From assembly GCA_964405835.1 (NCBI GenBank), contig CAYOPN010000003.1:29273-93272 (forward strand): a stretch of 64,000 nt of DNA, written 5' to 3'. Below, piece by piece: positions 2,230-44,901 of the stretch. Positions within the stretch are counted from its first letter, which is position 1; every line of letters starts with the position of its first letter. Position numbers and translations under genes: made by a program. Below the pieces are notes generated by a model. That model made no database searches. It was not told the origin of the DNA and worked only from the letters and a program-made list of their open reading frames with translations. Source of the stretch: an uncultured Elusimicrobia bacterium (GTDB taxonomy: Bacteria; Elusimicrobiota; Elusimicrobia; F11).

Positions 2230-3198
2230 TTAATAGATGGGATTTGGCTGGATGAGGTGGAGGCGGACGTAGTCCGAGACGGAGCTTTCCAATGATTGAA
2301 TCGGTTTTGTGTAGCCGGCGGCTCGGAGCTTCGACAGATCTGCTTCCGTGAAATACTGGTATTGGCCGCGCAACTTCTCAGGCATCGGGAAATAGGTGAT
2401 TTTGGGTTCTTTCTTTAACGCCGCAAACACCGCCAACATGAGATCCTTAAACGAACGGGCCTTCCCAGAGCCGATATTGAAAATTCCGTTTTTCTCCGGG
2501 TTCTCCACGAAATAAAACATCGCGTCATCGACGTCTTTTACATAGACAAAATCACGTTCCTCGGACCCGTCGCCGTAACCGGGGCGCGACGACGCGAACA
2601 ACCGCACCGCGCCGTCCTTCTTAATTTGGTCAACCGCCTTGCACACCATGCTCCGCATGTCGCCCTTGTGGTATTCGTTGGGCCCAAATACATTGAAATA
2701 ACGGAAACCCACGACCTCGTCCGTGAGCTTGTTTTCGACGAGCCAGGAATCAAACGCATGTTTGGATTCGGCATAAGGATTAAGAGGTTTGAATTTCGGT
2801 AGTTCGCGGTCGTCGTCTTTGTAGCCGTTTTTTCCGTCGCCATAGACCGACGCGCTCGAGGCGTAGTGGAACCGTTTGCCGTTGGCCAGCGCCCATTTGG
2901 CGAGCGTCTGGCTGTATTCGAGATTGTTCCGTTTGAGAAAGGCCCGGTCCATTTCGGTGGTGTCCGAGCAAGCGCCCAAATGGACAATCAGGTCGGCGGA
3001 GAGTTTGTTCTTGGACAGCGCGTCCAGCGCGGCCTCGCGCGAAAGGTAGTCGCGGTACTTCTTCCCTCCAAAATTGGCGATGCCGTCCGGCGACGCCATG
3101 GTATCGACAAGCACAATGTCGTCCAACCCCATTTCATTGAGTTTCCGAAGGTAACAACTACCGATAAACCCGGCCGCGCCAGTCAAAAGGATCTTCAT
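2230..3198 (-). CDS. hldD: ADP-L-glycero-D-manno-heptose-6-epimerase
   Basis: MKILLTGAAGFIGS Rossmann motif; VGFRYFNVFGP, FKRDFVYVKDV and YFPMPEKLRGQYQYFTEADLSKLRAAGY align well with E. coli HldD/RfaD. Confidence 0.85.
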   Translation of the reverse strand: MKILLTGAAGFIGSCYLRKLNEMGLDDIVLVDTMASPDGIANFGGKKYRDYLSREAALDALSKNKLSADLIVHLGACSDTTEMDRAFLKRNNLEYSQTLAKWALANGKRFHYASSASVYGDGKNGYKDDDRELPKFKPLNPYAESKHAFDSWLVENKLTDEVVGFRYFNVFGPNEYHKGDMRSMVCKAVDQIKKDGAVRLFASSRPGYGDGSEERDFVYVKDVDDAMFYFVENPEKNGIFNIGSGKARSFKDLMLAVFAALKKEPKITYFPMPEKLRGQYQYFTEADLSKLRAAGYTKPIQSLESSVSDYVRLHLIQPNPIY

Positions 3199-3221
3199 GA
3201 GCGGCGCATGATAACAGGTTT

Positions 3222-3260
3222 TCTTAAAAAACTTTAATTCGGCGTTAATGGGCGGTTAAT
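3222..3260 (+). promoter_or_regulatory. Four phased TTAA(T) half-sites (spacing 10/11/11 bp) upstream of arnB: PmrA/BasR-box-like response-regulator site
   Basis: cTTAAa (3224), tTTAAT (3234), gTTAAT (3245), gTTAAT (3256). OmpR/PhoB-family regulators bind direct repeats at ~11-bp periodicity; the PmrA box is CTTAAT-N5-CTTAAT. Confidence 0.45.
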
Positions 3261-3306
3261 GGTCGAATTTTATGCTGAGGGCATGAAATCAAGTGATTCG
3301 CCCAAA

Positions 3307-4464
3307 ATGCTCCGGCCGACCTTCCTCCCCTTCTCACGACCTTCCGTCGGACAGGAAGAAATCGATGAGATTGTCGACTCCATCAAATCCGGATGGATAA
3401 CAACCGGTCCGAAAGTCGAAAAGTTTGCGGCCGAATTGGCTGGATATGTTGGAGCTCCCTATGTCGCACCGGTTTCATCGGCGACCGCAGGGCTGCATTT
3501 AGCGCTGTTGGCGCACGGGATCGGGCCCGGGGACGAAGTCATTACCACGCCGATGACGTTTGCCGCGACGGCCAATGTGATCGTGTTGACCGGCGCCACG
3601 CCGGTGTTTGCCGATATCGACCGGGCCACCCTTCAAATCCGACCGGAGACCGTCGCCAAGAAAATCACTTCCAAAACGCGCGCCATCATTCCCGTGCATT
3701 ACGCCGGACAACCGGTGGATTTGGATACGTTAATGGACATCGCCAAAAAACACAAGCTGGCCGTCATTGAAGACGCCGCGCACGCCATCGGCACCGAATA
3801 TAAAGGAAAGCGGATTGGTTCGCACGGGAACACGGTTGTGTTCTCGTTTCATCCCAACAAGAACATGACCACCGGGGAAGGCGGCGCGGTCGCAACATTT
3901 GACGAGGACATCCACAAAGCTGTTTCGCTGCTGCGCTTTCACGGCATGGATAAAAACGCTTGGAAACGGTTCGACAAAGCCGGATCGCCGCGTTACGACA
4001 TCGCCTTGCCCGGCTACAAATACAACATGATGGACATTCAAGCGGCGATGGGCCTCCATCAATTAAAGAAATTGGACGGGTTCATCGAAGAACGCACCAA
4101 CCGGGCATTGAAGTACCAGGAATTTTTTAGTGGGCTCTCCGGCCTCATTATTCCGCAGGAAGTTTCCTATGCCCATCGTCACGCGTGGCATCTCTACACG
4201 CCGCTGATCAACACAGACATGCTTTCCATTTCCCGGGACCAATTCATCCAAGAACTAAAGGACCGGAACATCGGCTCCGGTCTCCACTACACCGCCGTGC
4301 ACGAGTTTTCTTTCTACGCCGAAAAATACGGTTACAAACCCGAAGATTTTCCCGAGGCCCACTTTGTATCGGAGCGGATTTTGTCCCTCCCTTTATTCCC
4401 CTCCATGACCGACCAAGACCAGGAAGACGTTGTTGAAGCCGTCATTGGGATCTGTGAACAATGA
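3307..4464 (+). CDS. arnB: UDP-4-amino-4-deoxy-L-arabinose--oxoglutarate aminotransferase (DegT/DnrJ/EryC1 family)
   Basis: MLRPTFLPFSRP...GWITTGPK...SSATAGLH...IPVHYAG aligns with E. coli ArnB (MSEFLPFSRPAMG...). Track start 3259 lies inside the TTAAT repeat; 3283 or 3307 is more plausible. Confidence 0.85.
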   Translation: MLRPTFLPFSRPSVGQEEIDEIVDSIKSGWITTGPKVEKFAAELAGYVGAPYVAPVSSATAGLHLALLAHGIGPGDEVITTPMTFAATANVIVLTGATPVFADIDRATLQIRPETVAKKITSKTRAIIPVHYAGQPVDLDTLMDIAKKHKLAVIEDAAHAIGTEYKGKRIGSHGNTVVFSFHPNKNMTTGEGGAVATFDEDIHKAVSLLRFHGMDKNAWKRFDKAGSPRYDIALPGYKYNMMDIQAAMGLHQLKKLDGFIEERTNRALKYQEFFSGLSGLIIPQEVSYAHRHAWHLYTPLINTDMLSISRDQFIQELKDRNIGSGLHYTAVHEFSFYAEKYGYKPEDFPEAHFVSERILSLPLFPSMTDQDQEDVVEAVIGICEQ

Positions 4465-5153
4465 AAGACATCTCGATCGCGATTCCGATATTTAACGAGG
4501 AAAAAAATATTCCGCTGTTGCTGCCGCGGCTGCTGACGGTCCTTGATTCAATGAAGCGGCCTTACGAAATCATTTTTGTGGACGATGGAAGCCGCGACGG
4601 CTCGTTGAGACTGCTCAAGAAAGCGGCGGAACAATATCCCGGACGCATCCACGTTATCGGTCTTTCCAGAAACATCGGCCAACATCAGGCACTTTTGATT
4701 GCCTTCAAAAGTGTGCAAGGCCGCCACATCGTGACGCTCGACGCGGACCTCCAGAACCCACCGGAAGAAATCCCGAAAATCCTCGCAAAACTGGACGCCG
4801 GCCACGACGTCGTGGGAGGGATCCGCATGAACCGCCAAGACACTTTATTCCGGAAAACGGCGTCGCGCCTCGTAAACAGGATAACGTCTTTGATCACGCA
4901 CCTGGACCTTCAAGATTGCGGATGCATGTTGCGCGGTTATTCCCATGACGTTGTCGAAAAGATTGTCGCCTGCGATAAGCGGTCGGCATTTATTCCGGCC
5001 CGCGCGCTTTTGTTCGCGCGCAACCCCATCGACATCCCCGTCGCCCACGCATCCCGCGCCGAGGGCGAGTCAAAATACTCGCTCACCAAATTGGTCCGTT
5101 TGAATTTTGACGTCATGCTCGGTTTCTCCGCGTCGGGACGGAAGGCCCTATGA
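4461..5153 (+). CDS. arnC: Undecaprenyl-phosphate 4-deoxy-4-formamido-L-arabinose transferase (GT2), short form without C-terminal TM helices
   Basis: IPIFNEE...IIFVDDGSRDGS...TLDADLQNPPEEIP...CMLRGY...ESKYS aligns with the first ~230 residues of E. coli ArnC. Ends 5153 with ATGA overlap into the next gene, so there is no room for the ~90-aa TM tail. Confidence 0.8.
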   Translation: MKDISIAIPIFNEEKNIPLLLPRLLTVLDSMKRPYEIIFVDDGSRDGSLRLLKKAAEQYPGRIHVIGLSRNIGQHQALLIAFKSVQGRHIVTLDADLQNPPEEIPKILAKLDAGHDVVGGIRMNRQDTLFRKTASRLVNRITSLITHLDLQDCGCMLRGYSHDVVEKIVACDKRSAFIPARALLFARNPIDIPVAHASRAEGESKYSLTKLVRLNFDVMLGFSASGRKAL

Positions 5154-6043
5154 GCAGCCGGCCGCGCATCGTGGTATTTGCCTATTCGGAAGTGGGCCAT
5201 GCCTGTTTAAAAGCATTACTGGACCGCGGAGAAAACGTGGTCTGCGTTTATACGCATGAAGACAACCCGGATGAATCCCTTTGGTTTCCCTCAGTCGCCA
5301 AACTGGCGGCCGAGCATTCATTGCTGGTCCGGACGGAAGAATTATCGGGAGCTGATCGTCCCCCTTTCAGTTCCCACCGCCCGGACCTTATATTCTCGTT
5401 CTATTACCGGAACCTCATACCCAAATCCATTTTGGATTTGGCGCCGCTTGGAGCGTTCAACATGCACGGATCGCTTTTACCGCGCTACCGCGGGCGGGCC
5501 CCCATAAATTGGGCCGTGTTAAACGGCGAGGAAAAAACCGGCGCCACCTTACACGCCATGGTGGAAAAAGCCGATGCCGGCGATATCGTGGATCAGGAAG
5601 CGGTCGACATCGGTCCAGACGATACGGCTGCAACAGTCCAATCCCGGGTCACAAAGGCCGCGGTGACCGTGTTGGTTCGCCAACTGGAAAATTTGAAATC
5701 AGGCCGCGCGCCGCGCATCCCGCAAGACTCCTCCAAAGCCACGGTGTTCGGACGCCGCCGGCCCGAAGATGGCTCCATCAACTGGAATTGGCCGGCCAAA
5801 CGTGTCCACGATTTGGTGCGCGCTGTTTCGCGTCCCTACCCCGGGGCTTTCGGAATGATCAACGGGGGAAAATTTCGAATCTGGAAGTCTCAGCTAACCA
5901 ACGAAACGGCGATCGTTAAAAACCCCGGCATGGTCCAGGTTCGGGAAAAACAGACCTTTGTCACTTGTGGAGACGGAAAACTTTTGGAAATTATTGAAAT
6001 GCAAAAGGAGCCAATCAATGAAAGTATTAATACTCGGCGTTAA
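5150..6043 (+). CDS. arnA: UDP-4-amino-4-deoxy-L-arabinose formyltransferase (ArnA N-terminal domain as a separate ORF)
   Basis: [19 protein letters not shown]...[10 protein letters not shown]...[22 protein letters not shown]...[13 protein letters not shown] matches the E. coli ArnA formyltransferase domain; stop TAA at 6041-6043. Confidence 0.8.
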
Positions 6044-7064
6044 CGGATTTATCGGGAACGCCCTCACCGAACGGATTTTGACCACGACGAATTGGGAGGT
6101 GTACGGCCTCGACGTCGGTTCCGACAAAATCAAACCGTTCCTAACCAACCCGCGCTTCCGTTATTTGGAAGGCGACATTTCTATTAATAAGGAATGGACC
6201 GAATACCACGTCAAAAAAGCGGATGTCGTACTCCCGCTCGTGGCCATTGCAACGCCGGCGGCCTATGTTGAGAGACCGCTCGAAGTGTTCCAGCTCGACT
6301 TCGAGGAAAACCTGCGCATCATCAAGCAGTGCGTAAAATACAAGAAGCGACTGGTATTCCCTTCCACGTCCGAAGTCTACGGCATGTGCCCCGATGAGGA
6401 GTTCGACGAAGAAGTCTCGAACATGGTCTATGGCCCCATCCACAAACAGCGCTGGATTTATTCCTGCTCGAAACAACTGCTTGACCGCGTCATTTACGCG
6501 TTCGGCCAATCCGAAGGGCTGCGGTTCACGTTATTTCGTCCATTCAACTGGATCGGCCCGAACCTGGACAACATCGACGCGCCGAAAGAAGGTTCGTCAC
6601 GGGTGCTCACGCAGTTCCTCCACAATATTCTCTATAAACAGCCGATCAAATTGGTCGACGGCGGCACGCAACGGCGTTGCTTCACTTATATTTCCGACGG
6701 CGTGGACGCGTTGATGAAAATTCTCGTGAACGAGAAGAAATGCGCGGACGGCCAGATTTTTAACATCGGCAATCCGGACAACGATTTTTCGATCAAGGAC
6801 TTGGCGGAAAAACTGATCGCGGCCGTTGCCAAATACCCGGGATACGAAGACCTGGCGGCCAAAGCGAAGATCGTCCCTATGCATTCGGACGCCTATTACG
6901 GGCTGGGATATCAAGACATCATGACGCGCAAGCCATCGCTGCGCCACATTCGCCACACGCTCGGATGGCAGCCACAGGTTTCCATGGACGAGGCCCTGGC
7001 GAAAACGCTGGACTTCTACCTCAAGAACCGGAAACCGGGCGTCCGCTCTCACGCGACCGTATGA
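6018..7064 (+). CDS. arnA: UDP-glucuronic acid decarboxylase/dehydrogenase (ArnA C-terminal domain as a separate ORF)
   Basis: [21 protein letters not shown]...[18 protein letters not shown]...[11 protein letters not shown]...[10 protein letters not shown] matches E. coli ArnA 317-660. Start ATG 6018 preceded by AAGGAG; overlaps the FT ORF by 26 nt. Confidence 0.8.
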
Positions 7065-7960
7065 CTTCCATACCGCGCATCGCGCTGAAGGTGGATTGCG
7101 ACACCTTCGCAGGAACGCGGAACGGCATTCCCGCGCTGTTGCGGACATTTGACAGGACCCATGTGCGGGCCAGCTTCTTTTTCACTCTCGGCCCCGACCG
7201 GTCCGGGCTCGCCATCAAACGCGTGTTCACGCAGAAAGGGTTCCTAAAAAAAATGTTCCGTTCAAATGCCGCTTCTCTCTACGGTCCCAAGACCGCGCTT
7301 TATGGGACGCTCCTTCCGGCGCCGCTGATTGGAAAAAATTTAAAAAATGCAATCCGTTCCGTTATGTCGGCCGGTCATGAAATCGGTGTGCACGGCTGGG
7401 ACCATGTACGCTGGCACGACCAGTTGGATTACATGACGGAAAGCGAAATAGCGCACGACTACGGAAGAGCTCACCGCATGTTTGAAGAAATTTTCGGCCG
7501 TCGTGCGCGGGCCTCAGCGGCACCCGGATGGCACGCAACCGCAACTTCATTAAAAATCCAGGACCAGTACGATATGCTCTACGCATCCGACACACGCGGC
7601 GGCCCGCCTTTCTTCCCTCATGTTGAAGGAACAACATTCAAGCTTCTTCAGATCCCCACCACGCTACCCACTTGGGACGAAGCGCTGGTTGACCCGACAT
7701 TCCGCGACCGGCACGCATTGATCGGACGTTACAACACGTCCATTCAAGGCACCGAAGTCCATACCATTCATACCGAGGTGGAAGGAGGACGGTACAATTT
7801 CGCTTTCGAAGACCAGCTTAAAGCATGGTCGTCGCTGGGATTCGCTTTTATCACGATGGAAGAAATCGCGCGCGAAACTCTTTCGGACATTGGAAACGTT
7901 CCGGTAAAAGAAATTGCGCGCGTCAGCATTCTGCACCGCGGCGGACTTGTGTCGGCATGA
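7061..7960 (+). CDS. arnD: 4-deoxy-4-formamido-L-arabinose-phosphoundecaprenol deformylase (polysaccharide deacetylase fold)
   Basis: [27 protein letters not shown]...[10 protein letters not shown]...[11 protein letters not shown] aligns with E. coli ArnD. ATG 7061 overlaps the arnA(DH) stop (ATGA). Confidence 0.8.
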
Positions 7961-9387
7961 GCAAGAAATTCTGGCTCTTCTTATTGGCGCTCGTGCCGCT
8001 TTACATGACGTGGACGTTCGACCATTCTCTTTGGAACCCGGACGAAACGCGCGACGCCGGCATTGCGAGCGAGATGTACCGGACCGGCGAATTCGCGATA
8101 CCGAAACTTAATGGCGAACCCTTCCTTGAAAAACCTCCTCTTTATTATTGGACGTGCGTTGCGGTTTACAAACTGACCGGCCGTGTCACCGCCGGCACCA
8201 CGCGACTTCCATCGGCCTTGTACGGGATCCTCGGAGTACTATTCACATTCCTCATTGGCCGGCGACTCTTCAACGAGCGCGCGGGTCTTTTTGCCGCGGC
8301 GATCCTGGCCACGACGTCGCAGTATTTCCGCATGAGTCATTTCGCGATGATGGACATCTCATTGGCCGCCATGGTGGCGGGCGCGCTGTTTTTCTATTTG
8401 AAAGGCTCGCGCGTGGGATTCGCTGTATTTACCGTGCTGGCTTTTTATGCGAAAGGATTTCTTGGAGTTGTCCTTCCCGGCATTGTCGTAACGCTCGACT
8501 TGCTTCTTGATAAAAAACCAAAAGAACTCGCCAAGACCATCGCGGTCAGCGCCCTGGTATTTCTCGCGCTAACGTTGCCATGGTTTTGGGAACTGTGGCA
8601 CAAAGGCGGCCGGAAGTTCCTCGAAGTATTTTTCATCGACAACCACTGGAAAAGGTACACCGTCGACACCGGCGACCACACCGAACACTTCTGGTTTTTT
8701 TACCTGTTGTCGTTTCCGGTCGACTTTCTGCTCTGGACCCCGATTTTTTTTGGCGCGCTAAGAAGTTTATCGCTGAATATTCCAGACCATTTCGAATCCA
8801 GGCCCAAACGGTTTCTATGGTTATGGTTTTTTGGGCTGCTGCTGTTTTTCACGGTTTCCTCCAGCAAACGAAGCCTTTATTTGTTGCCGCTTTTTCCAGC
8901 GGCCGCTTTACTGGCAGGGACGTGGCTGGATGAGGTGATCAAAAAAGAATCGTGGGCCTATTGGGCCTTTGGCGGCGTGGGCGCTGCGATTGCGTTCGCA
9001 AGTTTTCTGTTCGCGGGCCGGTTGGACAATGAAAAAACTTTTGTCCCGTTGTGCGAAGTTATTGCCGCAAACCGCACAGGAAAAGACCTGGTGGGGTTCG
9101 ATATGAACGAAATGGAGCGCGGGGTCTTCAGTTTTTATTTGGGTGGGCCCATCGCAAATGTTATTCATGCGGAAGACCTTCAAAAAATGATGGCGCAGGA
9201 ACCATCAAAAAAGTTTTTGGTGCTTTCCAGCAAAAACAAGCGGGTCTCAATGGCTCCATTGGAGCCGGACTTGAAACTTTTGTTCGAATACCGGCCGCAA
9301 AAAAAGACGCGGTCCTATCTCCTTTATGAAAGTACTGATCATCGAAGACGACAAAACGATAAGGTCCTTCATCGCCAAGGGGCTTAA
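7957..9387 (+). CDS. arnT: Undecaprenyl phosphate-alpha-4-amino-4-deoxy-L-arabinose arabinosyl transferase (GT83)
   Basis: [65 protein letters not shown] is the typical ArnT/PMT N-terminus; multi-TM. ATGA overlap with arnD; 3' end overlaps the RR gene by 62 nt. Confidence 0.8.
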   Translation: MSKKFWLFLLALVPLYMTWTFDHSLWNPDETRDAGIASEMYRTGEFAIPKLNGEPFLEKPPLYYWTCVAVYKLTGRVTAGTTRLPSALYGILGVLFTFLIGRRLFNERAGLFAAAILATTSQYFRMSHFAMMDISLAAMVAGALFFYLKGSRVGFAVFTVLAFYAKGFLGVVLPGIVVTLDLLLDKKPKELAKTIAVSALVFLALTLPWFWELWHKGGRKFLEVFFIDNHWKRYTVDTGDHTEHFWFFYLLSFPVDFLLWTPIFFGALRSLSLNIPDHFESRPKRFLWLWFFGLLLFFTVSSSKRSLYLLPLFPAAALLAGTWLDEVIKKESWAYWAFGGVGAAIAFASFLFAGRLDNEKTFVPLCEVIAANRTGKDLVGFDMNEMERGVFSFYLGGPIANVIHAEDLQKMMAQEPSKKFLVLSSKNKRVSMAPLEPDLKLLFEYRPQKKTRSYLLYESTDHRRRQNDKVLHRQGA

Positions 9388-10003
9388 AGAAGAAGGACAT
9401 ACCGTTTCCCAGGCCGCGGATGGCCAAGAAGGCCTTAAAGCCGCGCTTTCCGGCGAGAATGAGTTCATTATTCTCGACCTCATGCTCCCCAAAATGGACG
9501 GCATCGCCCTCTGCAGGAAGGTCCGCGAGAGCGGCATCGAGACCCCCATCGTGATGCTGACCGCCAAAGACGCGCTGGAAAACCGGATCGAAGGACTCGA
9601 AACCGGCGCCGATGACTACCTCGTAAAACCATTTGCTTTCGGCGAACTCCTGGCCCGCATCAAGGCCGTGGCCCGGCGAAAAAATTCCGAGCCGCAAACC
9701 ACCATTGAAATTGCCGGGCTTGCCATCGACCTGGTCCGCCACAAGGTCTCTTACGAAGACAAGAACGTGGAACTCACCAGCCGCGAGTTCGCGCTGCTGC
9801 AGCATTTCATGAAGCGGCGCGACCACGTGCTCAGCCGGACCATGATCATTGAATCGGTGTGGGGCTACGACTTCCAGGCCGGCACCAATATCATCGATGT
9901 GTACATCAATTTTCTCCGGCGAAAACTCCACAAACTGACCGGAAAAGAATGGATCCGCACCGTGCGCAACCGCGGATATGTTTTTGAAGAACCCGCCGAA
10001 TGA
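9326..10003 (+). CDS. OmpR-family two-component response regulator (PmrA/BasR-like; candidate regulator of the arn operon)
   Basis: MKVLIIEDD...ILDLMLPKMDG...LTAKDA receiver domain, then winged-helix ...IRTVRNRGYVFE. Confidence 0.8.
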   Translation: MKVLIIEDDKTIRSFIAKGLKEEGHTVSQAADGQEGLKAALSGENEFIILDLMLPKMDGIALCRKVRESGIETPIVMLTAKDALENRIEGLETGADDYLVKPFAFGELLARIKAVARRKNSEPQTTIEIAGLAIDLVRHKVSYEDKNVELTSREFALLQHFMKRRDHVLSRTMIIESVWGYDFQAGTNIIDVYINFLRRKLHKLTGKEWIRTVRNRGYVFEEPAE

Positions 10004-11373
10004 AGTTCTCCATCCGCACCAGGCTGACGTTCATTTTTGTTTTGGTCTTTGCGGCGCTCTTGGTCCTGTTCACGGGCGTGGTCTATTACATTCTCTCTTC
10101 CAACCTTCACAAGGACCTCGTCGAAGATTCCCTTCACGACATGAGCGTCATGACCACCAACATGACCAAGAAAAATTGGCGGGATGAAGTCAATGAAATG
10201 CCGGACGAAGCGGATGAATTCCGCCTTTTAATAAAAGTTTTCGATCCCGAGGGACGCCCGCTTATTCTGGCCGGAAAATTCCTTCCCGAGGATTGGCCCA
10301 CCGATTTAGGGGAATTAAAACGTTCCTTGACTGGCCCGCAATGGTCGGAGTCGGAAATAAACGAGACACCCTATCTCGTGTTGACCCAATCTTTTGTCCC
10401 TCCCGGCCAAAAACCGCATTTTGTCCAAATTGCCAACTCCGGTGTGGACGGGGAACGAATACGCAACCAATTCATCAATTGTGTGAACATTGGGACCCCC
10501 ATCATCTTGTTGGTTGCCGGATTTGCCGGTTTCTTTTTTTCCCGGCGGGCGTTATTGCCTGTTGCCCGCATCAGTGAACGCGCCCAACGAATCAACACCG
10601 ACAACCTGCACGAAAGGCTGAGTTACGACGGCCCCAACGACGAGCTTCAGCATCTGACCGATACGTTAAACGGCATGTTGGGCCGCGTTCAAAAATCCGT
10701 CGAGCAAATGCGGGGGTTTATCGCCGACGCGTCCCATGAATTGCGGATCCCTATTACGGGACTGCGGGGAACGCTGGAAGTCGCGCTGCGCAACGACCGT
10801 TCGAAGGAAGACTATAAACAGGTGGTCGAAACCGCCTACAGCGAATCGGAACGGTTAAGCGAATTGGTATGGGACCTGCTTTCCCTGGCCCGCTCGGACG
10901 CCGGAGAAATGAAGGTTGAAAAAACCAGGGTCGACCTTGGGCCCTTTATCCGCAATGTGTTTGAGGAAGCCAACATCATTAATTCCGAAAAACAAGTGGC
11001 GGTCCGCCTTGGAAATGTTCCCCAAGGGACCGGCCTCTTTGATGAAACCAAAGTCCACCAATTGCTGATCAACCTGATTGAAAACGCGATCCGTTACAAC
11101 AAGTCCGGAGGAGAAGTGGTCCTCTCCGGAGAAATAAAACCTGGAACGCTTCTTTTCTCCGTTAAAGACACCGGAATTGGAATATCCAAGGCCGACCTCC
11201 CACGCATATTCGACCGTTTTTACCGCGTGGACAAGGCCCGCTCGCGTGAAGCAGGCGGGACCGGCTTGGGCCTCTCCATTGCCAAGTCCATCGCAGAAGC
11301 GCACGGCGGATCGTTGACGGTCGCGAGCACGCTCGGCAACGGGTCTGAATTTACGCTGAAGCTACCTGTTTAG
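10000..11373 (+). CDS. Sensor histidine kinase (PmrB/BasS-like): two TM segments, HAMP, HisKA, HATPase_c
   Basis: H-box ADASHELRIPITGL; N/G boxes IENAIRYN, DTGIGI, GGTGLGLSIAK. ATGA overlap with the RR gene. Confidence 0.8.
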   Translation: MKFSIRTRLTFIFVLVFAALLVLFTGVVYYILSSNLHKDLVEDSLHDMSVMTTNMTKKNWRDEVNEMPDEADEFRLLIKVFDPEGRPLILAGKFLPEDWPTDLGELKRSLTGPQWSESEINETPYLVLTQSFVPPGQKPHFVQIANSGVDGERIRNQFINCVNIGTPIILLVAGFAGFFFSRRALLPVARISERAQRINTDNLHERLSYDGPNDELQHLTDTLNGMLGRVQKSVEQMRGFIADASHELRIPITGLRGTLEVALRNDRSKEDYKQVVETAYSESERLSELVWDLLSLARSDAGEMKVEKTRVDLGPFIRNVFEEANIINSEKQVAVRLGNVPQGTGLFDETKVHQLLINLIENAIRYNKSGGEVVLSGEIKPGTLLFSVKDTGIGISKADLPRIFDRFYRVDKARSREAGGTGLGLSIAKSIAEAHGGSLTVASTLGNGSEFTLKLPV

Positions 11374-11506: not shown

Positions 11507-11752
11507 ATGGAATATTACGTCTACATCCTTAAGAGCCTAAAGTCAGATCGCACATATGTCGGCATGACTTCGAATGTCGACCAACGTTTAGCGGAACATA
11601 ATCGCGGGAAATGCCCAACAACAAGCATTGGAATTCCGTGGAAGTTATTACGAGCTGAGAAGCATCCGAATAGCGATAGAGCTCGAAGAAGGGAAAAGTA
11701 TTTAAAAAGCGGAGATGGACGATTAACACTTAAATCGTGGGTCGGAAAATGA
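11507..11752 (+). CDS. GIY-YIG nuclease family protein (UPF0213-like), low-GC gene
   Basis: MEYYVYILKSLKSDRTYVGMTSNVDQRLAEHN matches the GIY-YIG motif (YVYIL...YVG...R..EH). GC visibly lower (~44%) than flanks; flanked by direct repeats. Confidence 0.75.
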   Translation: MEYYVYILKSLKSDRTYVGMTSNVDQRLAEHNRGKCPTTSIGIPWKLLRAEKHPNSDRARRREKYLKSGDGRLTLKSWVGK

Positions 11753-15891: not shown

Positions 15892-18800
15892 ATGCAGGAC
15901 CGAGGCAGATACATGCGAAAGACAATTTTCACGCTGATTTTTCCGTCACTTTTGGCGCCTGCCGTCGCGATGGCGCTCGACTGCGCCAATCCGGCACAGT
16001 TTATCGGCCACGGTCCGGATCCTTTCATTCCCTACGTCGCTTATCCCGGCTACGTCGCGCCCGGCCAATCGTTGATTGAATCCATCCAAGACGGCCCATG
16101 GGAATCGCCCGCCACGTGGGCAGGCAATATTGTCCCGTCCCCCAATAACGTTGTCATCATCAAGCACCGCGTCACCCTCAACTCCACCGTTCGCGTCGCC
16201 GATACCGCGGTCATTTCCACTGGCAAACTGACTTTCAATTCGACCCTTGATACGCGACTTGAACTGGGGACGCTTCAAGTGGTGTGCGGACAGCTCGAAA
16301 TCGGCACCGAAAACGCTCCGGTCGAAAGCAACCGCAAAGCCGAAATAGTTTTTCTCGATATTCCAATTAATACCACGCGCGACCCCGGCCAATACAACAA
16401 CGGCCTGGTCGTGATAGATGGCAAGGTGACGATCCATGGCGCACCGAAGATGGACACATTCCTTCGCCTGGCGGCCGAAGCGCCGGCGGGCGCCTCCATG
16501 GTGACGCTTGAAAACCCAACGACCGGGTGGAAACCGGGCGACCTGCTCATGTTTCACGATACGCGCCAATATACGAACACGACGCGGCCGGACATCCCCG
16601 AGGCGGATCACACCGTTCAAAGCGAAGTAATCCCCATCGCATCCATTTCCGGCGATGGCCGCAGCGTTACTTTGGCATCGTCACTGCAATATGCTCACAA
16701 GGGCGCCCGCGACGGAGATGACGTATTAATCTTTCGCCCCTGGGTCGGCAATCTGACGCGCAATGTCAACATCCGCTCGGCCAATCCCAATGGCACGCGC
16801 GGGCATATGTTGTTTATGCACCGCAGCCAAATCGACATTCGCTACGCTCAAATGTTTGAACTCGGCCGAACCAAAACGGATCCGCTCAACAACACCCTGT
16901 TCACTCCTTCCGGAAGTCCAACTCAGATCGGAACCAATCAGATCGGCCGCTACTCCGCGCATTTTCATCATGTTGCCGGTCCGCTTTCCACACCGGCCAA
17001 CGGCTATCAGTTCACCTTTCAAGGGAACTCGGTGTTTTCACTATTGGAAACCACCTCTTTTAAGTGGGGCATAGCTCTTCACAACAGCCATTTCGGTCTC
17101 ATCAAGGACAACGTTGTTTATAACTGGTCCGGCGCGGGCATTGTGGCAGAAGACGGCAATGAAACCGCTAACATGGTTGCTCACAATTTTGTGAATCGCC
17201 TGACCTACACGGGCACAGGCGAAGATTCGCGTAGCCGTGAGGACGTCGGCCATACAGGAGCTCCTTTTTGGTTTCGTGGCCCGAACAACATCATCCGCGA
17301 TAATGTGGCCAGCGGCGGGACCGGCGGATTCGCGATTGTTGTGGGAGCGATGGCCAATCCAACGACGCGTATCCCATTGGGACCTGGTTCAGACACAGCG
17401 GAGGCGGGTCAATACACGATGAAAGACATGATGGCCATCGCCATTCGCGAATTTGCACGCAACGAAGTCGCTGGGGCCACCATCATGGGATCGACCATCT
17501 GGAATGTCGGATCCCGGAACAATGTCACACCCGTAAATGAGATAGAAGAATCGGTCATCAAAGATTTCCGCGTGTGGCACGTTAGCTCGTATGTGTACTA
17601 CAACTATAAGACGAACCGTGTTACTTTTGATGGGGCGGTCTGCCTAGGTGACTTTCAAACCTTGAGAAACCTTACATCCGCCGCCGGCGCGTTTTTCTTC
17701 AGCGACTATGTCTCGTTCAATTTCAAAATCATCAACTCGAACATTCAAGGATTTTTGAATGGCATTTTAATCGGGCCCGTCGGTGACCAGACCATTGAAA
17801 ATACGTATATGCGTAATTACATCTCTATCATTAAGGTCCCAACATGGATGGCCAGTGGCGCGCCCGCTCCAGAACTACCGCCGCGCACCGTTACGCTGAA
17901 AAATGTGCGGTTTGTACCGACCGGAACGCCGTCACGCAACGACTGGGGAACACAGGCATTTATCCGATTGACCGGCATACCCCATGCGCGCGCGACCAAC
18001 TTGATTCAACGCGATCGCTTGTTTGTTTACAACCACAACGGCGTCGTGGGAGATAATTTCCGCGGATTTACTCCGGAACAAAAATTTGACGCGATCATGC
18101 CCAAGACACAAGTGCGCCAAGATGGCTGGATCGAGCTCCTCGCTTCTCCAGATGAAGGTTTGACCAATCAACAGAACCGCGATCTTCACGGCATCATGAC
18201 CGCGGGTGAAATTGCGCCGTGCCATGACACGCGCACCGGTATCATTGGATTTGTTTGTCCAATGGTAAACGATGCCACTCCGCCTTCAATACCACAAGGG
18301 CTTCAGGCGACCGTGGTCAGCGACAACCGGATCAATTTGACCTGGTCTGCCTCCAACGATCCGGAGTCCGATGTTGCCCAGTACAACATTTACAGGAATG
18401 GAGTCTTTATCCGGGAAACGCCCTCGACGAATTTTTCCGATACCGGTCTCAGAGAAGCGACGCAGTACCAATACGAAGTTTCAGCCGTAAATCTGGCGGA
18501 CATCGAATCGCCGAAAAGCGCACCCGCCTCCGCCACGACCCTTGTGGACAACACTCCTCCTCAACTCATGTCCGTGTTCGCCGCGGGAAATCCAAATTTC
18601 GTGAACGCGGTCTTCAACGAACCGGTCAATGAGGCCAGTGCGGAAAGCGTTTTAAATTACGTCATCAACCTCGGCGTGACAGTCCAGGCAGCGGTGCTTC
18701 AAGCCGACCTGAAAACAGTTGCTCTGACTGTTTCGGGTTTACTGGAAAATATTCAGTACCTGCTCACGGTCAATAACGTCACGGACCGTTCGCTTGCTGG

Positions 18801-19140
18801 AAATACCATTGCCTCCAACACGCAGCTTCCATTTACCTTTGACAGTCAATCGTCACCCGGACAAACCCCCAATGGAGGAACCCCCTCCGCCTCGAATCCT
18901 CGCGGGGGAAATTCCATCTATACCATCAACCCCTCCCGGGGATGGAACTCCATAGAGATGGCTTGCGAAGCGGATTTGGCCTCCATCTTCAATCGGATCG
19001 GGAAGGAAGTGGCCGTCGTGCCGACATACCAAAGACATTTGAGCTGGTACGGCAGAAATAACGAAGGGAGAGCTTGTCCTTCTGGCACCTATATTATTTC
19101 AGGCTGCGGCGGAAAAAAGAAGGTCGTCATCGTAAGATAA
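15892..19140 (+). CDS. Large secreted protein: signal peptide, G8 domain, right-handed beta-helix (CEMIP/TMEM2-like fold), FN3 and Ig-like domains
   Basis: Signal MRKTIFTLIFPSLLAPAVAMA. G8-like WESPATWAGNIVPSPNNVVII...GKLTF. Repetitive N/G-rich beta-helix turns. FN3-like PPSIPQGLQATVVSDNRINLTWSASNDPESDVAQYNIYRNG. Confidence 0.5.
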   Translation: MQDRGRYMRKTIFTLIFPSLLAPAVAMALDCANPAQFIGHGPDPFIPYVAYPGYVAPGQSLIESIQDGPWESPATWAGNIVPSPNNVVIIKHRVTLNSTVRVADTAVISTGKLTFNSTLDTRLELGTLQVVCGQLEIGTENAPVESNRKAEIVFLDIPINTTRDPGQYNNGLVVIDGKVTIHGAPKMDTFLRLAAEAPAGASMVTLENPTTGWKPGDLLMFHDTRQYTNTTRPDIPEADHTVQSEVIPIASISGDGRSVTLASSLQYAHKGARDGDDVLIFRPWVGNLTRNVNIRSANPNGTRGHMLFMHRSQIDIRYAQMFELGRTKTDPLNNTLFTPSGSPTQIGTNQIGRYSAHFHHVAGPLSTPANGYQFTFQGNSVFSLLETTSFKWGIALHNSHFGLIKDNVVYNWSGAGIVAEDGNETANMVAHNFVNRLTYTGTGEDSRSREDVGHTGAPFWFRGPNNIIRDNVASGGTGGFAIVVGAMANPTTRIPLGPGSDTAEAGQYTMKDMMAIAIREFARNEVAGATIMGSTIWNVGSRNNVTPVNEIEESVIKDFRVWHVSSYVYYNYKTNRVTFDGAVCLGDFQTLRNLTSAAGAFFFSDYVSFNFKIINSNIQGFLNGILIGPVGDQTIENTYMRNYISIIKVPTWMASGAPAPELPPRTVTLKNVRFVPTGTPSRNDWGTQAFIRLTGIPHARATNLIQRDRLFVYNHNGVVGDNFRGFTPEQKFDAIMPKTQVRQDGWIELLASPDEGLTNQQNRDLHGIMTAGEIAPCHDTRTGIIGFVCPMVNDATPPSIPQGLQATVVSDNRINLTWSASNDPESDVAQYNIYRNGVFIRETPSTNFSDTGLREATQYQYEVSAVNLADIESPKSAPASATTLVDNTPPQLMSVFAAGNPNFVNAVFNEPVNEASAESVLNYVINLGVTVQAAVLQADLKTVALTVSGLLENIQYLLTVNNVTDRSLAGNTIASNTQLPFTFDSQSSPGQTPNGGTPSASNPRGGNSIYTINPSRGWNSIEMACEADLASIFNRIGKEVAVVPTYQRHLSWYGRNNEGRACPSGTYIISGCGGKKKVVIVR

Positions 19141-41530: not shown

Positions 41531-42058
41531 TCAATTCCCTTCTGATAAAAGCCGTTTGACTTCCTCACGCCATTTCGCCGGATCTTTGACGTTGTAACCC
41601 GTGTGGATAAAACGAACATTCCCCTTCCGGTCAATAATGTAGGAACTCGGCATCGCTTCGGCCTCGTATTTGGCGACGACCGCGCTTTCCGGATCGAGCA
41701 ACACCGTCAACACCAGCGGTCGATTAATTGGTTTGGCGAGAAATTTTTGCACTGCGGCCGGCTTCTTGTCCACATTGATGGCCAGTACTTTGAATTTTTC
41801 CGTTTGGTATTCCTTCGCGAGACTGTTCAGTTCGGGGAACTCCACGTTGCAAGGCGGACACCACGTCGCCCAAAAGTTGACCAAAACAACGCTGCCACGA
41901 AGCGCCTTTAACTCAACCTGGTTTCCTTCCAGGTCCTTAAGTGAAAATTCCGGAGCGGGTTTATCGGTCCCGGCAGAAAATACCGGCCCAACCATCAGCA
42001 TCAACGCGAAAAAAACTGTTTTTAGCTTCATATTCATCTCCTTGACCGCTAATAGCAC
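41531..42058 (-). CDS. TlpA/ResA-like periplasmic thiol:disulfide oxidoreductase
   Basis: WATWCPPC active site; signal peptide. Confidence 0.85.
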   Translation of the reverse strand: MLLAVKEMNMKLKTVFFALMLMVGPVFSAGTDKPAPEFSLKDLEGNQVELKALRGSVVLVNFWATWCPPCNVEFPELNSLAKEYQTEKFKVLAINVDKKPAAVQKFLAKPINRPLVLTVLLDPESAVVAKYEAEAMPSSYIIDRKGNVRFIHTGYNVKDPAKWREEVKRLLSEGN

Positions 42059-42897
42059 CAGTGGCGGACACCAGCGCTTTCCAAGAAAGCATCTGCTGTT
42101 GCGCCGTTTAAAAATCCATACGTCGAAAGGAAACCGGCTTCGGTGCAGGTGTTCGCAGCCACCGTGACCGACCGTGGCGCGTCACTTACAGGCCAGCCAT
42201 TACGCGGGTCAAGAATATGGCCGTAGCGTTTGCCGTTGATCATCAGGAATTTTTTGGAATCCCCGCTGGTGGCCAGCGCGCCCTCTTTCGCTTCGATTAT
42301 GCGAACGGCCACATGCTCTTTCTCGGCGTCTTCAATACCGACTGTCCAGGGTTTACCATCCCGGCGTTTCCCTTCCATAGCAATGTCACCGCCGTAATTC
42401 ACCAACACCGCAACACCATAGCGGTCGCGGAGGGCCCGCAAGCTGCGATCGACCGCGTATTCTTTTCCAATGCCGCCCAAATCGATTTCCATACCGGGCG
42501 CAAGTTCAATCACAGGGTTCCGCCATTTCACTTTGTTCCACCCCACCAGCGGTAGGATCGTTTTTACGTCCTCCTCTTTGGGCACGCGGTCGCTACCGTC
42601 AAACTTCCAAACCTTGCGCAAAATTCCCGACGTAATGTCGAAGAGCCCGTTGCTGATCCGGTGGCAATGATCAGCGAAATCAATCAACCGCGCCGTTTCC
42701 TCATCGACTTTTACCGGCCGTCCCGCCGAAGTGTTGATTTGATGGACAATATTGCCCTCAATATAGCGGCTGAACTTTTTTTCAATACGGAACGCTTCCG
42801 CTTTGGCGATCTCCAACATCTCTTTGCCCAACACCGCGTCATCCGTATCGATCAGGATCTCACAAGGACAGGCCATCGCTCGAAAAGACCCTTTCAT
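42049..42897 (-). CDS. apbE: FAD:protein FMN transferase (ApbE family)
   Basis: EIDLGGIGKEYAVDRS and ApbE-like overall pattern. Confidence 0.8.
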   Translation of the reverse strand: MKGSFRAMACPCEILIDTDDAVLGKEMLEIAKAEAFRIEKKFSRYIEGNIVHQINTSAGRPVKVDEETARLIDFADHCHRISNGLFDITSGILRKVWKFDGSDRVPKEEDVKTILPLVGWNKVKWRNPVIELAPGMEIDLGGIGKEYAVDRSLRALRDRYGVAVLVNYGGDIAMEGKRRDGKPWTVGIEDAEKEHVAVRIIEAKEGALATSGDSKKFLMINGKRYGHILDPRNGWPVSDAPRSVTVAANTCTEAGFLSTYGFLNGATADAFLESAGVRHWCY

Positions 42898-42907
42898 CTC
42901 AATTTCC

Positions 42908-44179
42908 CTAGAAGGTGTATTGAATCTGGGCGATGGTCGCCTTTAGATTGGGATACGCGTCCAAACCACGCTGGACACCGATCAAGGAAGAAGGACTCTG
43001 GTCTCCGAAGGTGTTGTAGTACTCGAGCCGGAGAAGGAACGCATGCCCGTTCTTCATGTCCCATCCCCATTTCAGTCCATAGGTAAAACCGTGGAACTTC
43101 GCGAGGCGGTAATCCGAGCTGGCCTCGCGCGGCAACGGATCGCCGCTGATGAGGTTCAGGTGATAAAAGTCGGCTTCCGACTGACTGTAAAACCGCAGGC
43201 GCGGCTCCAGGTAATGATGTTCGGCAAACTTCCAGTTGTAATTCATATCAAGCGTATGGGAAGTGATGCCCCAGTCATCGAAGAAGTAACGGTAGGAAGC
43301 GCTGATCACGTCGCGGTCAAAATTATAGCGGGTCAACCAATAAAGCGAATGTTTGGTTCGGCTATCGGGACGGTTCTCATAAATATTGTCGACGGTCGAA
43401 CCCGTGTTACGGTCAATACGGCTCAACATTTTATAGGGATCGTTTAAGTAACCGCTCGCGCTGCTCAACGAATAATTCAACTGCATCAACGTGCGGCGGT
43501 TGATCACCTGCGTGACGCCCAGCAGTCCATCGAGCACGTTCTTACTGTCGCCGCCGCCCAAACGGGGTTGGACCTGGCCGGCGCCGACGGTCGTGGCAAG
43601 GGGGACCGGCACGCCGCCGACGGGATCAACCTGATCAAATTCACCGGAGAGACCGGCCATCAATGTCGTGTTTTTTTCATTGAAGTCGCGGGACAAAAGC
43701 ACGCTGCCCCCCGTAGAAAAGAAGTCGTATTCCTTCGATCCGTTGAGGACCAGCGTCAAAGACGTGAGACGGTTAAGGGGTTGCTTCCAGCTGGCATTGC
43801 CCGCAAAACGCGTGTCGTGAAAAGTGGGATCGAGCGGAATTTCTCCGGGAGCGACCACGTAACTGGCGCCACCGGACGGCGTCGTGAACGTCTGCGGCAC
43901 ATTCGTCGGCGTGGCCCCATTCGGCGTGGCGCCCGTTAGCACGTCCACCGTGAATTTTAAATTTGCCTCGCGCCCTTCGCTGAAGCGTTTCCTTAAATCA
44001 AGGACCGGTTCGATCGCTTTAACGCGGTCATCGGCCTCTTGATAATTCAGGACGGAGACGTCGACATTCCAGCTTTTTTCCTGGTCCTCGGCCGCTTTGG
44101 CCATGGGAACGGTCCCGAGCAACGCACAGGTGGCTGCGGAAAGTTTCTTTTTTAACTGGTCGTTGTTAGTTGCAGCCAC
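42908..44179 (-). CDS. DUF3570-family outer-membrane beta-barrel protein
   Basis: Signal; long barrel ending ...ATIAQIQYTF; conserved neighbourhood with DUF4266/ApbE/TlpA. Confidence 0.6.
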   Translation of the reverse strand: MAATNNDQLKKKLSAATCALLGTVPMAKAAEDQEKSWNVDVSVLNYQEADDRVKAIEPVLDLRKRFSEGREANLKFTVDVLTGATPNGATPTNVPQTFTTPSGGASYVVAPGEIPLDPTFHDTRFAGNASWKQPLNRLTSLTLVLNGSKEYDFFSTGGSVLLSRDFNEKNTTLMAGLSGEFDQVDPVGGVPVPLATTVGAGQVQPRLGGGDSKNVLDGLLGVTQVINRRTLMQLNYSLSSASGYLNDPYKMLSRIDRNTGSTVDNIYENRPDSRTKHSLYWLTRYNFDRDVISASYRYFFDDWGITSHTLDMNYNWKFAEHHYLEPRLRFYSQSEADFYHLNLISGDPLPREASSDYRLAKFHGFTYGLKWGWDMKNGHAFLLRLEYYNTFGDQSPSSLIGVQRGLDAYPNLKATIAQIQYTF

Positions 44180-44378
44180 AACCGCCGCCTCCGAATCCGC
44201 GCCCGCCGCTGGATCCTTCTATGCTGAAATAAATGTGATCATCGAATGCGGATTGAATTGGGTCCGGATCAACTTGCATGGCCCGAACAGACAACAGATC
44301 ACGTTCCCACGGTTTCACGCCCAACGAGGCGCACCCCCCCAAAGTCATTAGAGCGATTGCCAGTATCACGCGGCCCAT
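44166..44378 (-). CDS. DUF4266-family small lipoprotein
   Basis: MGRVILAIALMTLGGCASLG lipobox; C-terminal GGRGFGGGGCGCN motif typical of DUF4266. Confidence 0.6.
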   Translation of the reverse strand: MGRVILAIALMTLGGCASLGVKPWERDLLSVRAMQVDPDPIQSAFDDHIYFSIEGSSGGRGFGGGGCGCN

Positions 44379-44743
44379 AGCGCCACCAAATTCCCTTCGC
44401 GGTCCCGGAACCATTGATACGACCCGCGTCCTTTCCCCAAATCCACCCGTTCGCCAACAATCATTCCGCCCAATTCCTTGACCCGGGCGGTATACCGGTC
44501 CAAATCGTCCACTGAAAAATACAGAACGGTCGTGTTCGCGTTGCGGTCAATGGAAGGGACTTTCCGAAGTCCTCCGATCAATTCCTGGCCGGACTGGATC
44601 ACCCAATAGTCGGAGATCGACGCGTCTTGCAGGAGCAAAAATTCCCATTCGAAAAGGCCTTCGTAAAACATGCGGGCGTCCATAACATTGGCGGCGGGAA
44701 GATCAAACCAATTCGTTTTGACAATGGGTTTTGTTATTAGCAT
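44366..44743 (-). CDS. VOC/glyoxalase-family protein
   Basis: ~125 aa with glyoxalase-like pattern (FYEGLFEWEF..., ...GNLVALW). Confidence 0.5.
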   Translation of the reverse strand: MLITKPIVKTNWFDLPAANVMDARMFYEGLFEWEFLLLQDASISDYWVIQSGQELIGGLRKVPSIDRNANTTVLYFSVDDLDRYTARVKELGGMIVGERVDLGKGRGSYQWFRDREGNLVALWAA

Positions 44744-44901
44744 GTCCTTAGTATATCCAATGATCTTTAAAACGATATTAATGCCGGATTAAAATCCTTT
44801 AATTTTAATCTTGTAGAATGCCGCGCCCCTCGAGCAACTTGGTCGCCAAGCATCGTGGCGACTGAACCCGGCGGAGATTAATAGGAGTACCCGGTTCATT
44901 T

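Follow-up and report, generated by a model that had tools for sequence, protein, structure and literature searches.

What is the function of four evenly spaced TTAA motifs upstream of an arnB-like gene in an uncultured member of the Elusimicrobiota, and which protein, if any, reads them? The motifs lie on the plus strand of a contig stretch of 64,000 nucleotides (hereafter, the window), where the TTAA cores start at positions 3224, 3234, 3245, and 3256 (spacing 10/11/11). The initial annotation of this DNA had described them as a PmrA-box-like array and had placed the array in an autoregulatory arn-pmrAB-like unit, whose operon ends with the genes for the cognate response regulator (RR) and histidine kinase (HK). 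We searched the literature for accounts of how arn genes are regulated in Elusimicrobia and found none. Here, we compare the array with chance expectation, with promoters of loci that carry or lack an ortholog of the RR, and with known operators of the OmpR/PhoB family.

Materials and Methods

Contigs for comparison were chosen solely for the presence of an RR ortholog (67–78% identity), which gave eight independent contigs. Contigs were retrieved for seven orthologs (P0002, P0005, P0008, P0018, P0022, P0027, and P0040; contigs L161/162/163, L164, L165, L166, L167, L168/169, and L170/171). Control loci (L001–L160, 2.17 Mb) were chosen by ArnB alone. An alignment of the window promoter with these ArnB-chosen loci, which came from GTDB genomes and JGI metagenomes, was abandoned because they were too distant and non-syntenic, and they were kept as negative controls. 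The position weight matrix (PWM) was trained on 12 sites, all from other contigs and none from the window. The test for an arn operon took in ArnB, ArnC, ArnA, ArnD, and ArnT.

Results

Position and composition of the array

The 60-bp gap between the epimerase gene (2230–3198, minus strand) and the arnB-like ORF contains TTTCTTAAAAAACTTTAATTCGGCGTTAATGGGCGGTTAATGGTCGAATTTTATGCTGAGGGCATG, and positions 3220–3263 read TTTCTTAAAAAACTTTAATTCGGCGTTAATGGGCGGTTAATGG. The array is composed of the hexamers CTTAAA (3223–3228), TTTAAT (3233–3238), GTTAAT (3244–3249), and GTTAAT (3255–3260). The initial annotation had read the last three half-sites as GTTAAT/TTTAAT, which agrees with these hexamers, and the ATG selected by the ORF caller at 3259 does fall inside half-site 4, as it had pointed out.

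The published pmra-box, XTTAAY-N5-XTTAAY, overlaps the −35 region (PMC10570014). Two XTTAAY hexamers 5 nt apart were found in GTTAAT-N5-GTTAAT at 3244–3260, and TTTAAT-N5-GTTAAT was also present at 3233–3249. The description of the array as PmrA-box-like fits half-sites 3 and 4; half-sites 1 and 2 form a Cus-box-like dyad. These two half-sites (cTTAAAA-nn-TTTTAAt) resemble the CusR/HprR box, CATTACAAAATTGTAATG (PMC9302797), in forming a dyad with 10-bp spacing. Half-sites 1 and 2 read TTAAAA-NN-TTTTAA in most orthologs, contain A- and T-tracts, and were the best-conserved part of the array, with the top information content in the 14-site alignment. Judged by its letters, the array is a composite in which a Cus-box-like dyad is followed by a PmrA-box-like direct repeat.

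The window contained 182 TTAA motifs, and chains of at least four at 10–11-bp spacing occurred twice (the 3224–3260 array and positions 44767–44802). No such chain was found in 300 Markov-1 simulations of the window, and no TTAA array was found in 2.17 Mb of unrelated arnB loci. When the 64-kb window was scanned with the PWM, the site at 3220 (plus strand) scored 38.6 bits and that at 44806 (minus strand) 26.3 bits; the next independent match in the window reached 5.7 bits, and the maximum over 20 shuffled windows was 10.1. The positions and spacing first reported for the four cores thus stand, far above chance expectation.

The operon and its surroundings

Homologs of ArnB, ArnC, ArnA (both activities), ArnD, and ArnT were found in one operon downstream of the array (Table 1), and each Ara4N pathway gene from 4461 to 9387 overlapped or abutted its neighbor. 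ArnA was split into two ORFs, one for the formyltransferase and one for the decarboxylase. The best NCBIfam matches of the operon products were ArnB, ArnC, ArnD, and ArnT, none of them at the equivalog cutoff. The presence of an RR and an HK at the 3′ end of the arn operon was confirmed by their Pfam domains. By Pfam, the RR was also the sole DNA-binding protein of the operon. Homologs of ribonucleotide reductase assigned the contig to Elusimicrobiota.

The ArnC-like GT of the window was 230 aa long, as compared with 314–358 aa in all orthologs. It aligned to positions 6–227 of the 316-position ArnC model, the C-terminal membrane segment being missing, and the ORF that follows it starts by an ATGA overlap.

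On the opposite side of the array, the divergent hldD-like gene was preceded by a −10-like TATCAT (3208–3213, minus strand) located 14 nt from site 1, so that the array sits over the −35 region of this gene. Co-regulation of the hldD-like gene through the array is possible and would be specific to the window; the divergent hldD-like neighbor was not conserved in the loci of the RR orthologs.

Table 1 Features of the window that are discussed in the text
Feature	Position	Strand	Description
hldD-like gene (divergent)	2230..3198	−	ADP-glycero-manno-heptose 6-epimerase; TIGR02197, 369.8 bits, above cutoff
Half-sites 1 and 2	3224..3237	+	cTTAAAAAACTTTAAt; dyad, TTAA starts 10 bp apart
Half-sites 3 and 4	3244..3260	+	GTTAAT-N5-GTTAAT direct repeat, 11-bp period, in predicted −35 region
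Predicted −10 hexamer	3271..3276	+	TATGCT; 15 nt past start of fourth TTAA
arnB-like gene	3283..4464	+	UDP-Ara4O aminotransferase; best matches Pfam DegT, NCBIfam ArnB
ArnC-like GT2	4461–5153	+	Truncated, 230 aa
Formyltransferase	5150–6043	+	Pfam/NCBIfam
Decarboxylase/epimerase ORF	5958–7064	+	Pfam/NCBIfam
ArnD-like deformylase	6965–7960	+	Pfam/NCBIfam
ArnT-like PMT_2	7825–9387	+	Pfam/NCBIfam
OmpR/PhoB-family RR	9326..10003	+	Pfam Response_reg and Trans_reg_C
Sensor HK	10000..11373	+	TM, ~135-aa periplasmic domain, TM, HAMP, HisKA, HATPase_c
Second target operon (putative)	41531..44743	−	glyoxalase-DUF4266-DUF3570-ApbE-redoxin
Redoxin	41531–42058	−	
ApbE	42049–42897	−	
DUF3570	42908–44179	−	
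DUF4266	44166–44414	−	
Glyoxalase-fold protein	44366–44743	−	
Second −10 hexamer (predicted)	44750..44755	−	TATACT; 15 nt past fourth TTAA; then AAGGAC, ATG 44743 (predicted leaderless)
Second operator copy (putative)	44767..44802	−	Four TTAA at 10/11/11, read on minus strand

Occurrence of the array with the RR

Approximately 40 proteins shared 67–78% identity with the RR, and those of the next tier (approximately 50%) were annotated as CusR/heavy-metal RR; an exact-protein look-up with the window RR gave no match. All contigs with an RR ortholog showed the gene order arnB-GT2-FMT-decarboxylase-deformylase-PMT_2-RR-HK. In every one of them, four TTAA cores at 10/11/11 were located upstream of arnB, and the upstream neighbors were unrelated (an HTH gene, integrases, ferritin, tRNA-Pro, a Cu oxidase, a DsbD cluster, and a Na/H exchanger). 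The consensus of 14 sites was ttTCTTAAAaAntTTTAATyyntcwTTAArcctncwTTAAGg; conservation was confined to the TTAA cores, some of the bases beside them, and the −10, and the spacers varied.

The ArnB-chosen control loci (2.17 Mb) contained no RR ortholog and no array. Four of these controls, arnB loci of Elusimicrobiota without the RR, showed ordinary TATAAT promoters and an SD-led arnB; one of the four had a GC content of 38% and 291 TTAA motifs. A relaxed pattern that included the −10 gave 25 matches in 300 kb of RR-bearing loci vs. none in 2.17 Mb of controls. The best ArnB-chosen relatives (73–76% identical; a Gemmatimonadaceae MAG; L081) differed in gene order, with an ArnT-like gene preceding arnB and a spacer of only 22 nt. 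From these sequence comparisons, we conclude that the array is a conserved cis-element. The array-bearing contigs apparently belong to one clade; thus, the co-occurrence of RR and array is partly confounded by phylogeny.

Phage-type integrase genes were located directly upstream of the arn-RR-HK operon in L166 (2319–3510) and L164 (1227–2138), and in L166 a tRNA-Pro (3420–3491) ended 19 nt ahead of the array; the arn-RR-HK module may reside at, or move with, integrative elements. In L170, ArnC and the formyltransferase were fused into one 603-aa protein (3325–5136), and an inserted methyltransferase gene and PEMT-like gene (8515–9995) separated the ArnT-like gene from the RR.

Promoter anatomy and start codon

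A −10-like hexamer, nAnnnT, was found exactly 15 nt past the start of the fourth TTAA in all 14 aligned promoters (A2 and T6 conserved). It was TATGCT in the window and TACTCT, TATTCT, CATACT, or TATACT elsewhere. A sigma-70 two-hexamer scan of positions 2900–3600 returned no −35/−10 pair and no −35 hexamer, which we read as absence of the −35 and not as absence of a promoter.

In 9 of the 14 promoters an ATG was located exactly 6 nt past the −10, and in one more the distance was 7 nt; six of these ATGs coincided with starts that gene calling in the source assemblies had selected independently. This short distance argues for leaderless mRNAs and suggests that transcripts of the regulon are generally of this type. 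Accepting this anatomy, the transcription start site (TSS) in the window is predicted to be the start codon at 3283 or an adjoining base. Relative to a TSS at 3283, the −10 hexamer is located at −12 to −7, site 4 at −27 to −24, site 3 at −38 to −35, site 2 at −49 to −46, and site 1 at −59 to −56. Sites 1 and 2 thus span approximately −59 to −46 and sites 3 and 4, as hexamers, approximately −39 to −23, and no TTAA site overlaps the −10 or the predicted TSS.

The initial annotation had argued that arnB starts at 3283 or 3307. We place the start at the ATG at 3283 because it is 6 nt past the −10, in keeping with the conserved rule, and because the N-terminus read from it, MKSSDSPKMLRPTF, matches that of L165, MNRSKSKPTIRSTF. 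The ATG at 3307 is at most an internal Met, and the ATG at 3259 was rejected because it is upstream of the predicted −10. The start codon annotation of arnB is corrected accordingly.

Additional arrays

Searching for further arrays, a check that the initial annotation had proposed, revealed the second one in the window (TTAA positions 44767/78/89/99) and more in the RR-bearing contigs. In the latter, the array module was found again directly past the stop codon of the HK and before extra ArnT-like (PMT) or PAP2 genes (L161 12048, L162 3854, L164 13271, L166 12048, and L167 12045, with a 10/12/10 variant at L168 12048). Arrays were found only beside genes tied to this RR family.

The glyoxalase-DUF3570 operon that follows the second array is a cluster of the type described by Méheust et al., a DsbD-associated flavinylation cluster with DUF3570/ApbE, the function of which is uncertain (PMC8238504). 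In sister genomes, the DUF3570/ApbE operon was located beside a divergent RR-HK pair of its own (RR2-HK2). These RR2 paralogs (54–61% identity), together with HK2, were divergent from the glyoxalase-DUF3570 operon in L165 (13314–14076), L174 (9906–10678), and L175 (5427–6223). The promoters on the RR2 side had the same 10/11/11-plus-15 geometry, with TTAG/yTAA/CTAA/yTAA as half-sites (for example, the palindrome ATTAGAA-AA-TTCTAAT), and the recognition helix of RR2 differed consistently (I194V, F196Y). That half-sites and paralogs vary together favors members of the RR family as binders of the arrays and suggests paralog-specific operators for RR and RR2.

No RR2-HK2 pair adjoined the glyoxalase operon in the window. 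Given that its array is made of TTAA only and that the RR2-HK2 pair is missing beside it, this operon would fall under the arn-linked RR; the data suggest that this RR also drives the glyoxalase-DUF4266-DUF3570-ApbE-redoxin genes. Capture of the glyoxalase regulon by the arn-linked RR in the window genome is possible.

Outward-facing −10-like hexamers (TATCAT and TAGAAT) were observed 14–15 nt outside the far end of each window array. The TAGAAT (44814–44819, plus strand) faces a 1152-aa ORF (44902–48360). These hexamers hint at use of the window operators in both directions; they were not conserved in other loci, and we make no claim of bidirectional use. Small GIY-YIG nuclease ORFs adjoined two-component/DUF3570 regions (window 11507–11752; L175 187–423).

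Family of the RR and HK

The RR combined PF00072 (9.7e-29) with PF00486 (2.5e-24), as is typical of the OmpR/PhoB family, and gave full-length matches to structures of PrrA, DrrD, PhoP, MtrA, and BasR. Its best NCBIfam match was the heavy-metal RR model TIGR01387 (238 bits, below the cutoff of 279.2), and that of the HK was TIGR01386, matched at full length (268.4 bits, below the cutoff of 292.55). The PmrA/BasR model NF007928 scored lower than TIGR01387 (194.9 bits, cutoff 330), and the RR was 42% identical to Escherichia coli CusR and 34% to BasR. On these scores, which are under the curated cutoffs, the RR/HK pair appears nearest to the heavy-metal (CusRS-type) subfamily. True orthology to PmrAB was rejected on NCBIfam scores and identities. 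The proposed arn-pmrAB-like unit thus holds insofar as the operon ends with the RR-HK pair at each ortholog locus, but its two-component system is not the PmrAB one.

When the DNA-binding domain (DBD) was considered alone, PrrA, ArlR, and PcoR were closer and BasR/PmrA ranked far below, so that TTAA specificity is not predictable from homology. In PmrA, residues T187, N188, and V192 contact the TAA bases (PMC10570014); all three were conserved at the same positions in the window RR. The DBD was nearly invariant across orthologs (GTNIIDVYINFLRRKL), in line with an equally constant DNA motif.

Neither the window HK nor any of the seven orthologs had the Met/His-rich periplasmic segment of CusS, and CusS-like metal sensing was therefore not supported. 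The periplasmic domain of the HK (window 10000–10560) carried an invariant acidic motif, EMPDE(S/A)xEF, which contains ExxE. The signal is probably not Cu/Ag; cations or cationic peptides would be our guess.

Discussion

We consider it likely that the array serves an activator-dependent promoter as its operator, that it is bound by the RR encoded at 9326–10003, and that the arn genes and the two-component system form an autoregulated unit that controls the second operon as well. With the RR and HK as the last genes of the operon in all ortholog loci, an autoregulated unit is the natural reading. In the mechanism that we infer, the phosphorylated RR would bind as two dimers, one on the dyad of sites 1 and 2 and the other on the direct repeat of sites 3 and 4, which would replace the −35. 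Because TTAA is self-complementary, the orientation of each bound protomer cannot be read from the core. The bound RR would recruit RNA polymerase, much as class II activators do, to the −10 of a sigma-70-type promoter, and transcription would start at or beside the A of the ATG at 3283, giving a leaderless mRNA. This polycistronic mRNA would comprise the Ara4N genes, the RR, and the HK, and would close a positive autoregulatory loop. The same RR would drive the second array-bearing operon of the window and, in relatives, the extra ArnT/PAP2 genes.

Other explanations of the array were weighed against activation by the RR. That four TTAA motifs arose by chance in AT-rich intergenic DNA and have no function is hardly credible: intergenic DNA is indeed more AT-rich than coding DNA, but neither the simulations nor the control loci produced a single array, the same spacing recurred in all eight independent orthologous promoters and in at least six further ones, and the PWM score of the array far exceeded the null maximum. 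The comparative data effectively refute this reading. It is unlikely, although less so, that the sites serve another factor, such as a nucleoid-associated or AT-hook-type protein or another transcription factor, or that they are bent, phased A/T DNA (UP-element-like) that acts without a regulator. The sites are indeed rich in A/T and in helical phase, A- and T-tracts occur in sites 1 and 2, and with 64 kb of the genome visible a regulator encoded elsewhere could use them. Bending alone would be insufficient to explain why the exact TTAA was conserved while the spacers ranged from GC-rich (TGGGCGG in the window) to T-rich. The confinement of arrays to genes tied to this RR family, the shift of half-site sequence with the RR paralog, and the RR being the one DNA-binding protein of the operon also argue against another binder.

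Even if the RR is the binder, it might act mainly as a repressor or dual regulator that occludes the hldD promoter or holds arn off until dephosphorylated. The E. coli annotation lists BasR as a dual regulator, and the array overlaps the −35 region of the divergent TATCAT promoter. We regard this mode as quite improbable, given that in 14 of 14 promoters, whatever the neighbor, a −10 without a −35 was combined with an array at the position of a class II OmpR/PhoB activator, and that the −10 and the TSS were free of any overlap with a site.

Activation by the RR also agrees with the similarity of the array to known operators. In the PmrA/BasR box, hexamers with a TTAA core are repeated with an 11-bp period and replace the −35 (PMC10570014); sites 3 and 4 have the same core and period and are predicted to take the place of the −35. 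The BasR-dependent arnB promoter of E. coli reads CTTAAG-N5-GTTAAT-N10-TAAAAT (TTAA at L178 1815 and 1826, TAAAAT at +15), a geometry identical to that of GTTAAT-N5-GTTAAT-N10-TATGCT in the window (TTAA-N7-TTAA, predicted −10 at +15). The PmrA/BasR regulon (arnB/pbgP, ugd, and pmrCAB/eptA-basRS) also targets the Ara4N lipid A-modification operon, and in eptA-basRS the two-component genes share a transcript with a lipid A-modification gene, an arrangement also predicted here. Unlike PmrA/BasR systems, the Elusimicrobiota loci have four half-sites instead of two, with an upstream dyad of 10-bp spacing; the two-component genes are joined to a complete arn operon, transcripts are predicted to be leaderless, and the phylum is a different one. 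Tandem Pho boxes and OmpR F1–F3 likewise consist of head-to-tail half-sites at a phasing of approximately 10–11 bp, with a proximal pair that abuts the −10 and replaces the −35, whereas their half-site sequences and regulators differ from those described here. The PhoB box spans −41 to −25 (PMC10570014).

The CusR/HprR-type box ATTACAA-AA-TTGTAAT has TTAC/GTAA, and the half-site core of the group is TGTAA/TGTCA, whereas the core of the Elusimicrobiota array is TTAA. CusR/HprR-type regulators (CopR/PcoR/CzcR) target metal efflux, whereas the arrays precede lipid A-modification and envelope-redox genes. At the CusR/HprR-dependent promoters of E. coli cusC (L173 4514–4567) and hiuH (L177 2872–2925), we found that the published dyad was followed by half-sites at +11/+11, the fourth being weak, and by a −10-like hexamer 16 nt past the fourth position. 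By our own reading, these promoters, with 10/11/11 and a −10 at +16, have the layout of the Elusimicrobiota arrays, and the four-site layout may be general to the CusR-like RR subfamily.

We tentatively extend this reading, with more doubt than confidence, to an ancestral promoter grammar of CusR-like regulators, in which the 10/11/11 spacing and a −10 at 15–16 nt were retained and paralogs became insulated by the half-site core (TTAA, TTAG/CTAA, or TGTAA/TGTCA), the redox operon having been captured by the arn-linked RR in the lineage of the window. If this were true, lipid A charge modification would be coupled to extracytosolic electron transfer, and most transcripts of the regulon would be leaderless.

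The switch is of an ordinary kind and will not surprise a specialist; it is found here in uncultured Elusimicrobiota. In a phylum with almost no genetics, it would give one two-component system an operator and promoter defined by sequence, along with a small regulon, and would mean that TTAA tandem repeats can control Ara4N lipid A modification in systems other than those of PmrA orthologs. A tie between the DUF3570/ApbE flavinylation cluster and a CusR-like two-component system would offer a concrete way to learn under which conditions the cluster is induced. MAGs can be scanned for the regulon directly with the motif.

Elsewhere in the window, we observed a PorV-like protein with a C-terminal LysM domain (827–2110) and a 1082-aa beta-helix/G8 protein (15892–19140) with a weak, sub-threshold match to CHU_C, a type IX secretion signal. 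Together, the PorV-like and CHU_C proteins point to possible type IX secretion in a contig that is otherwise Elusimicrobiota-like.
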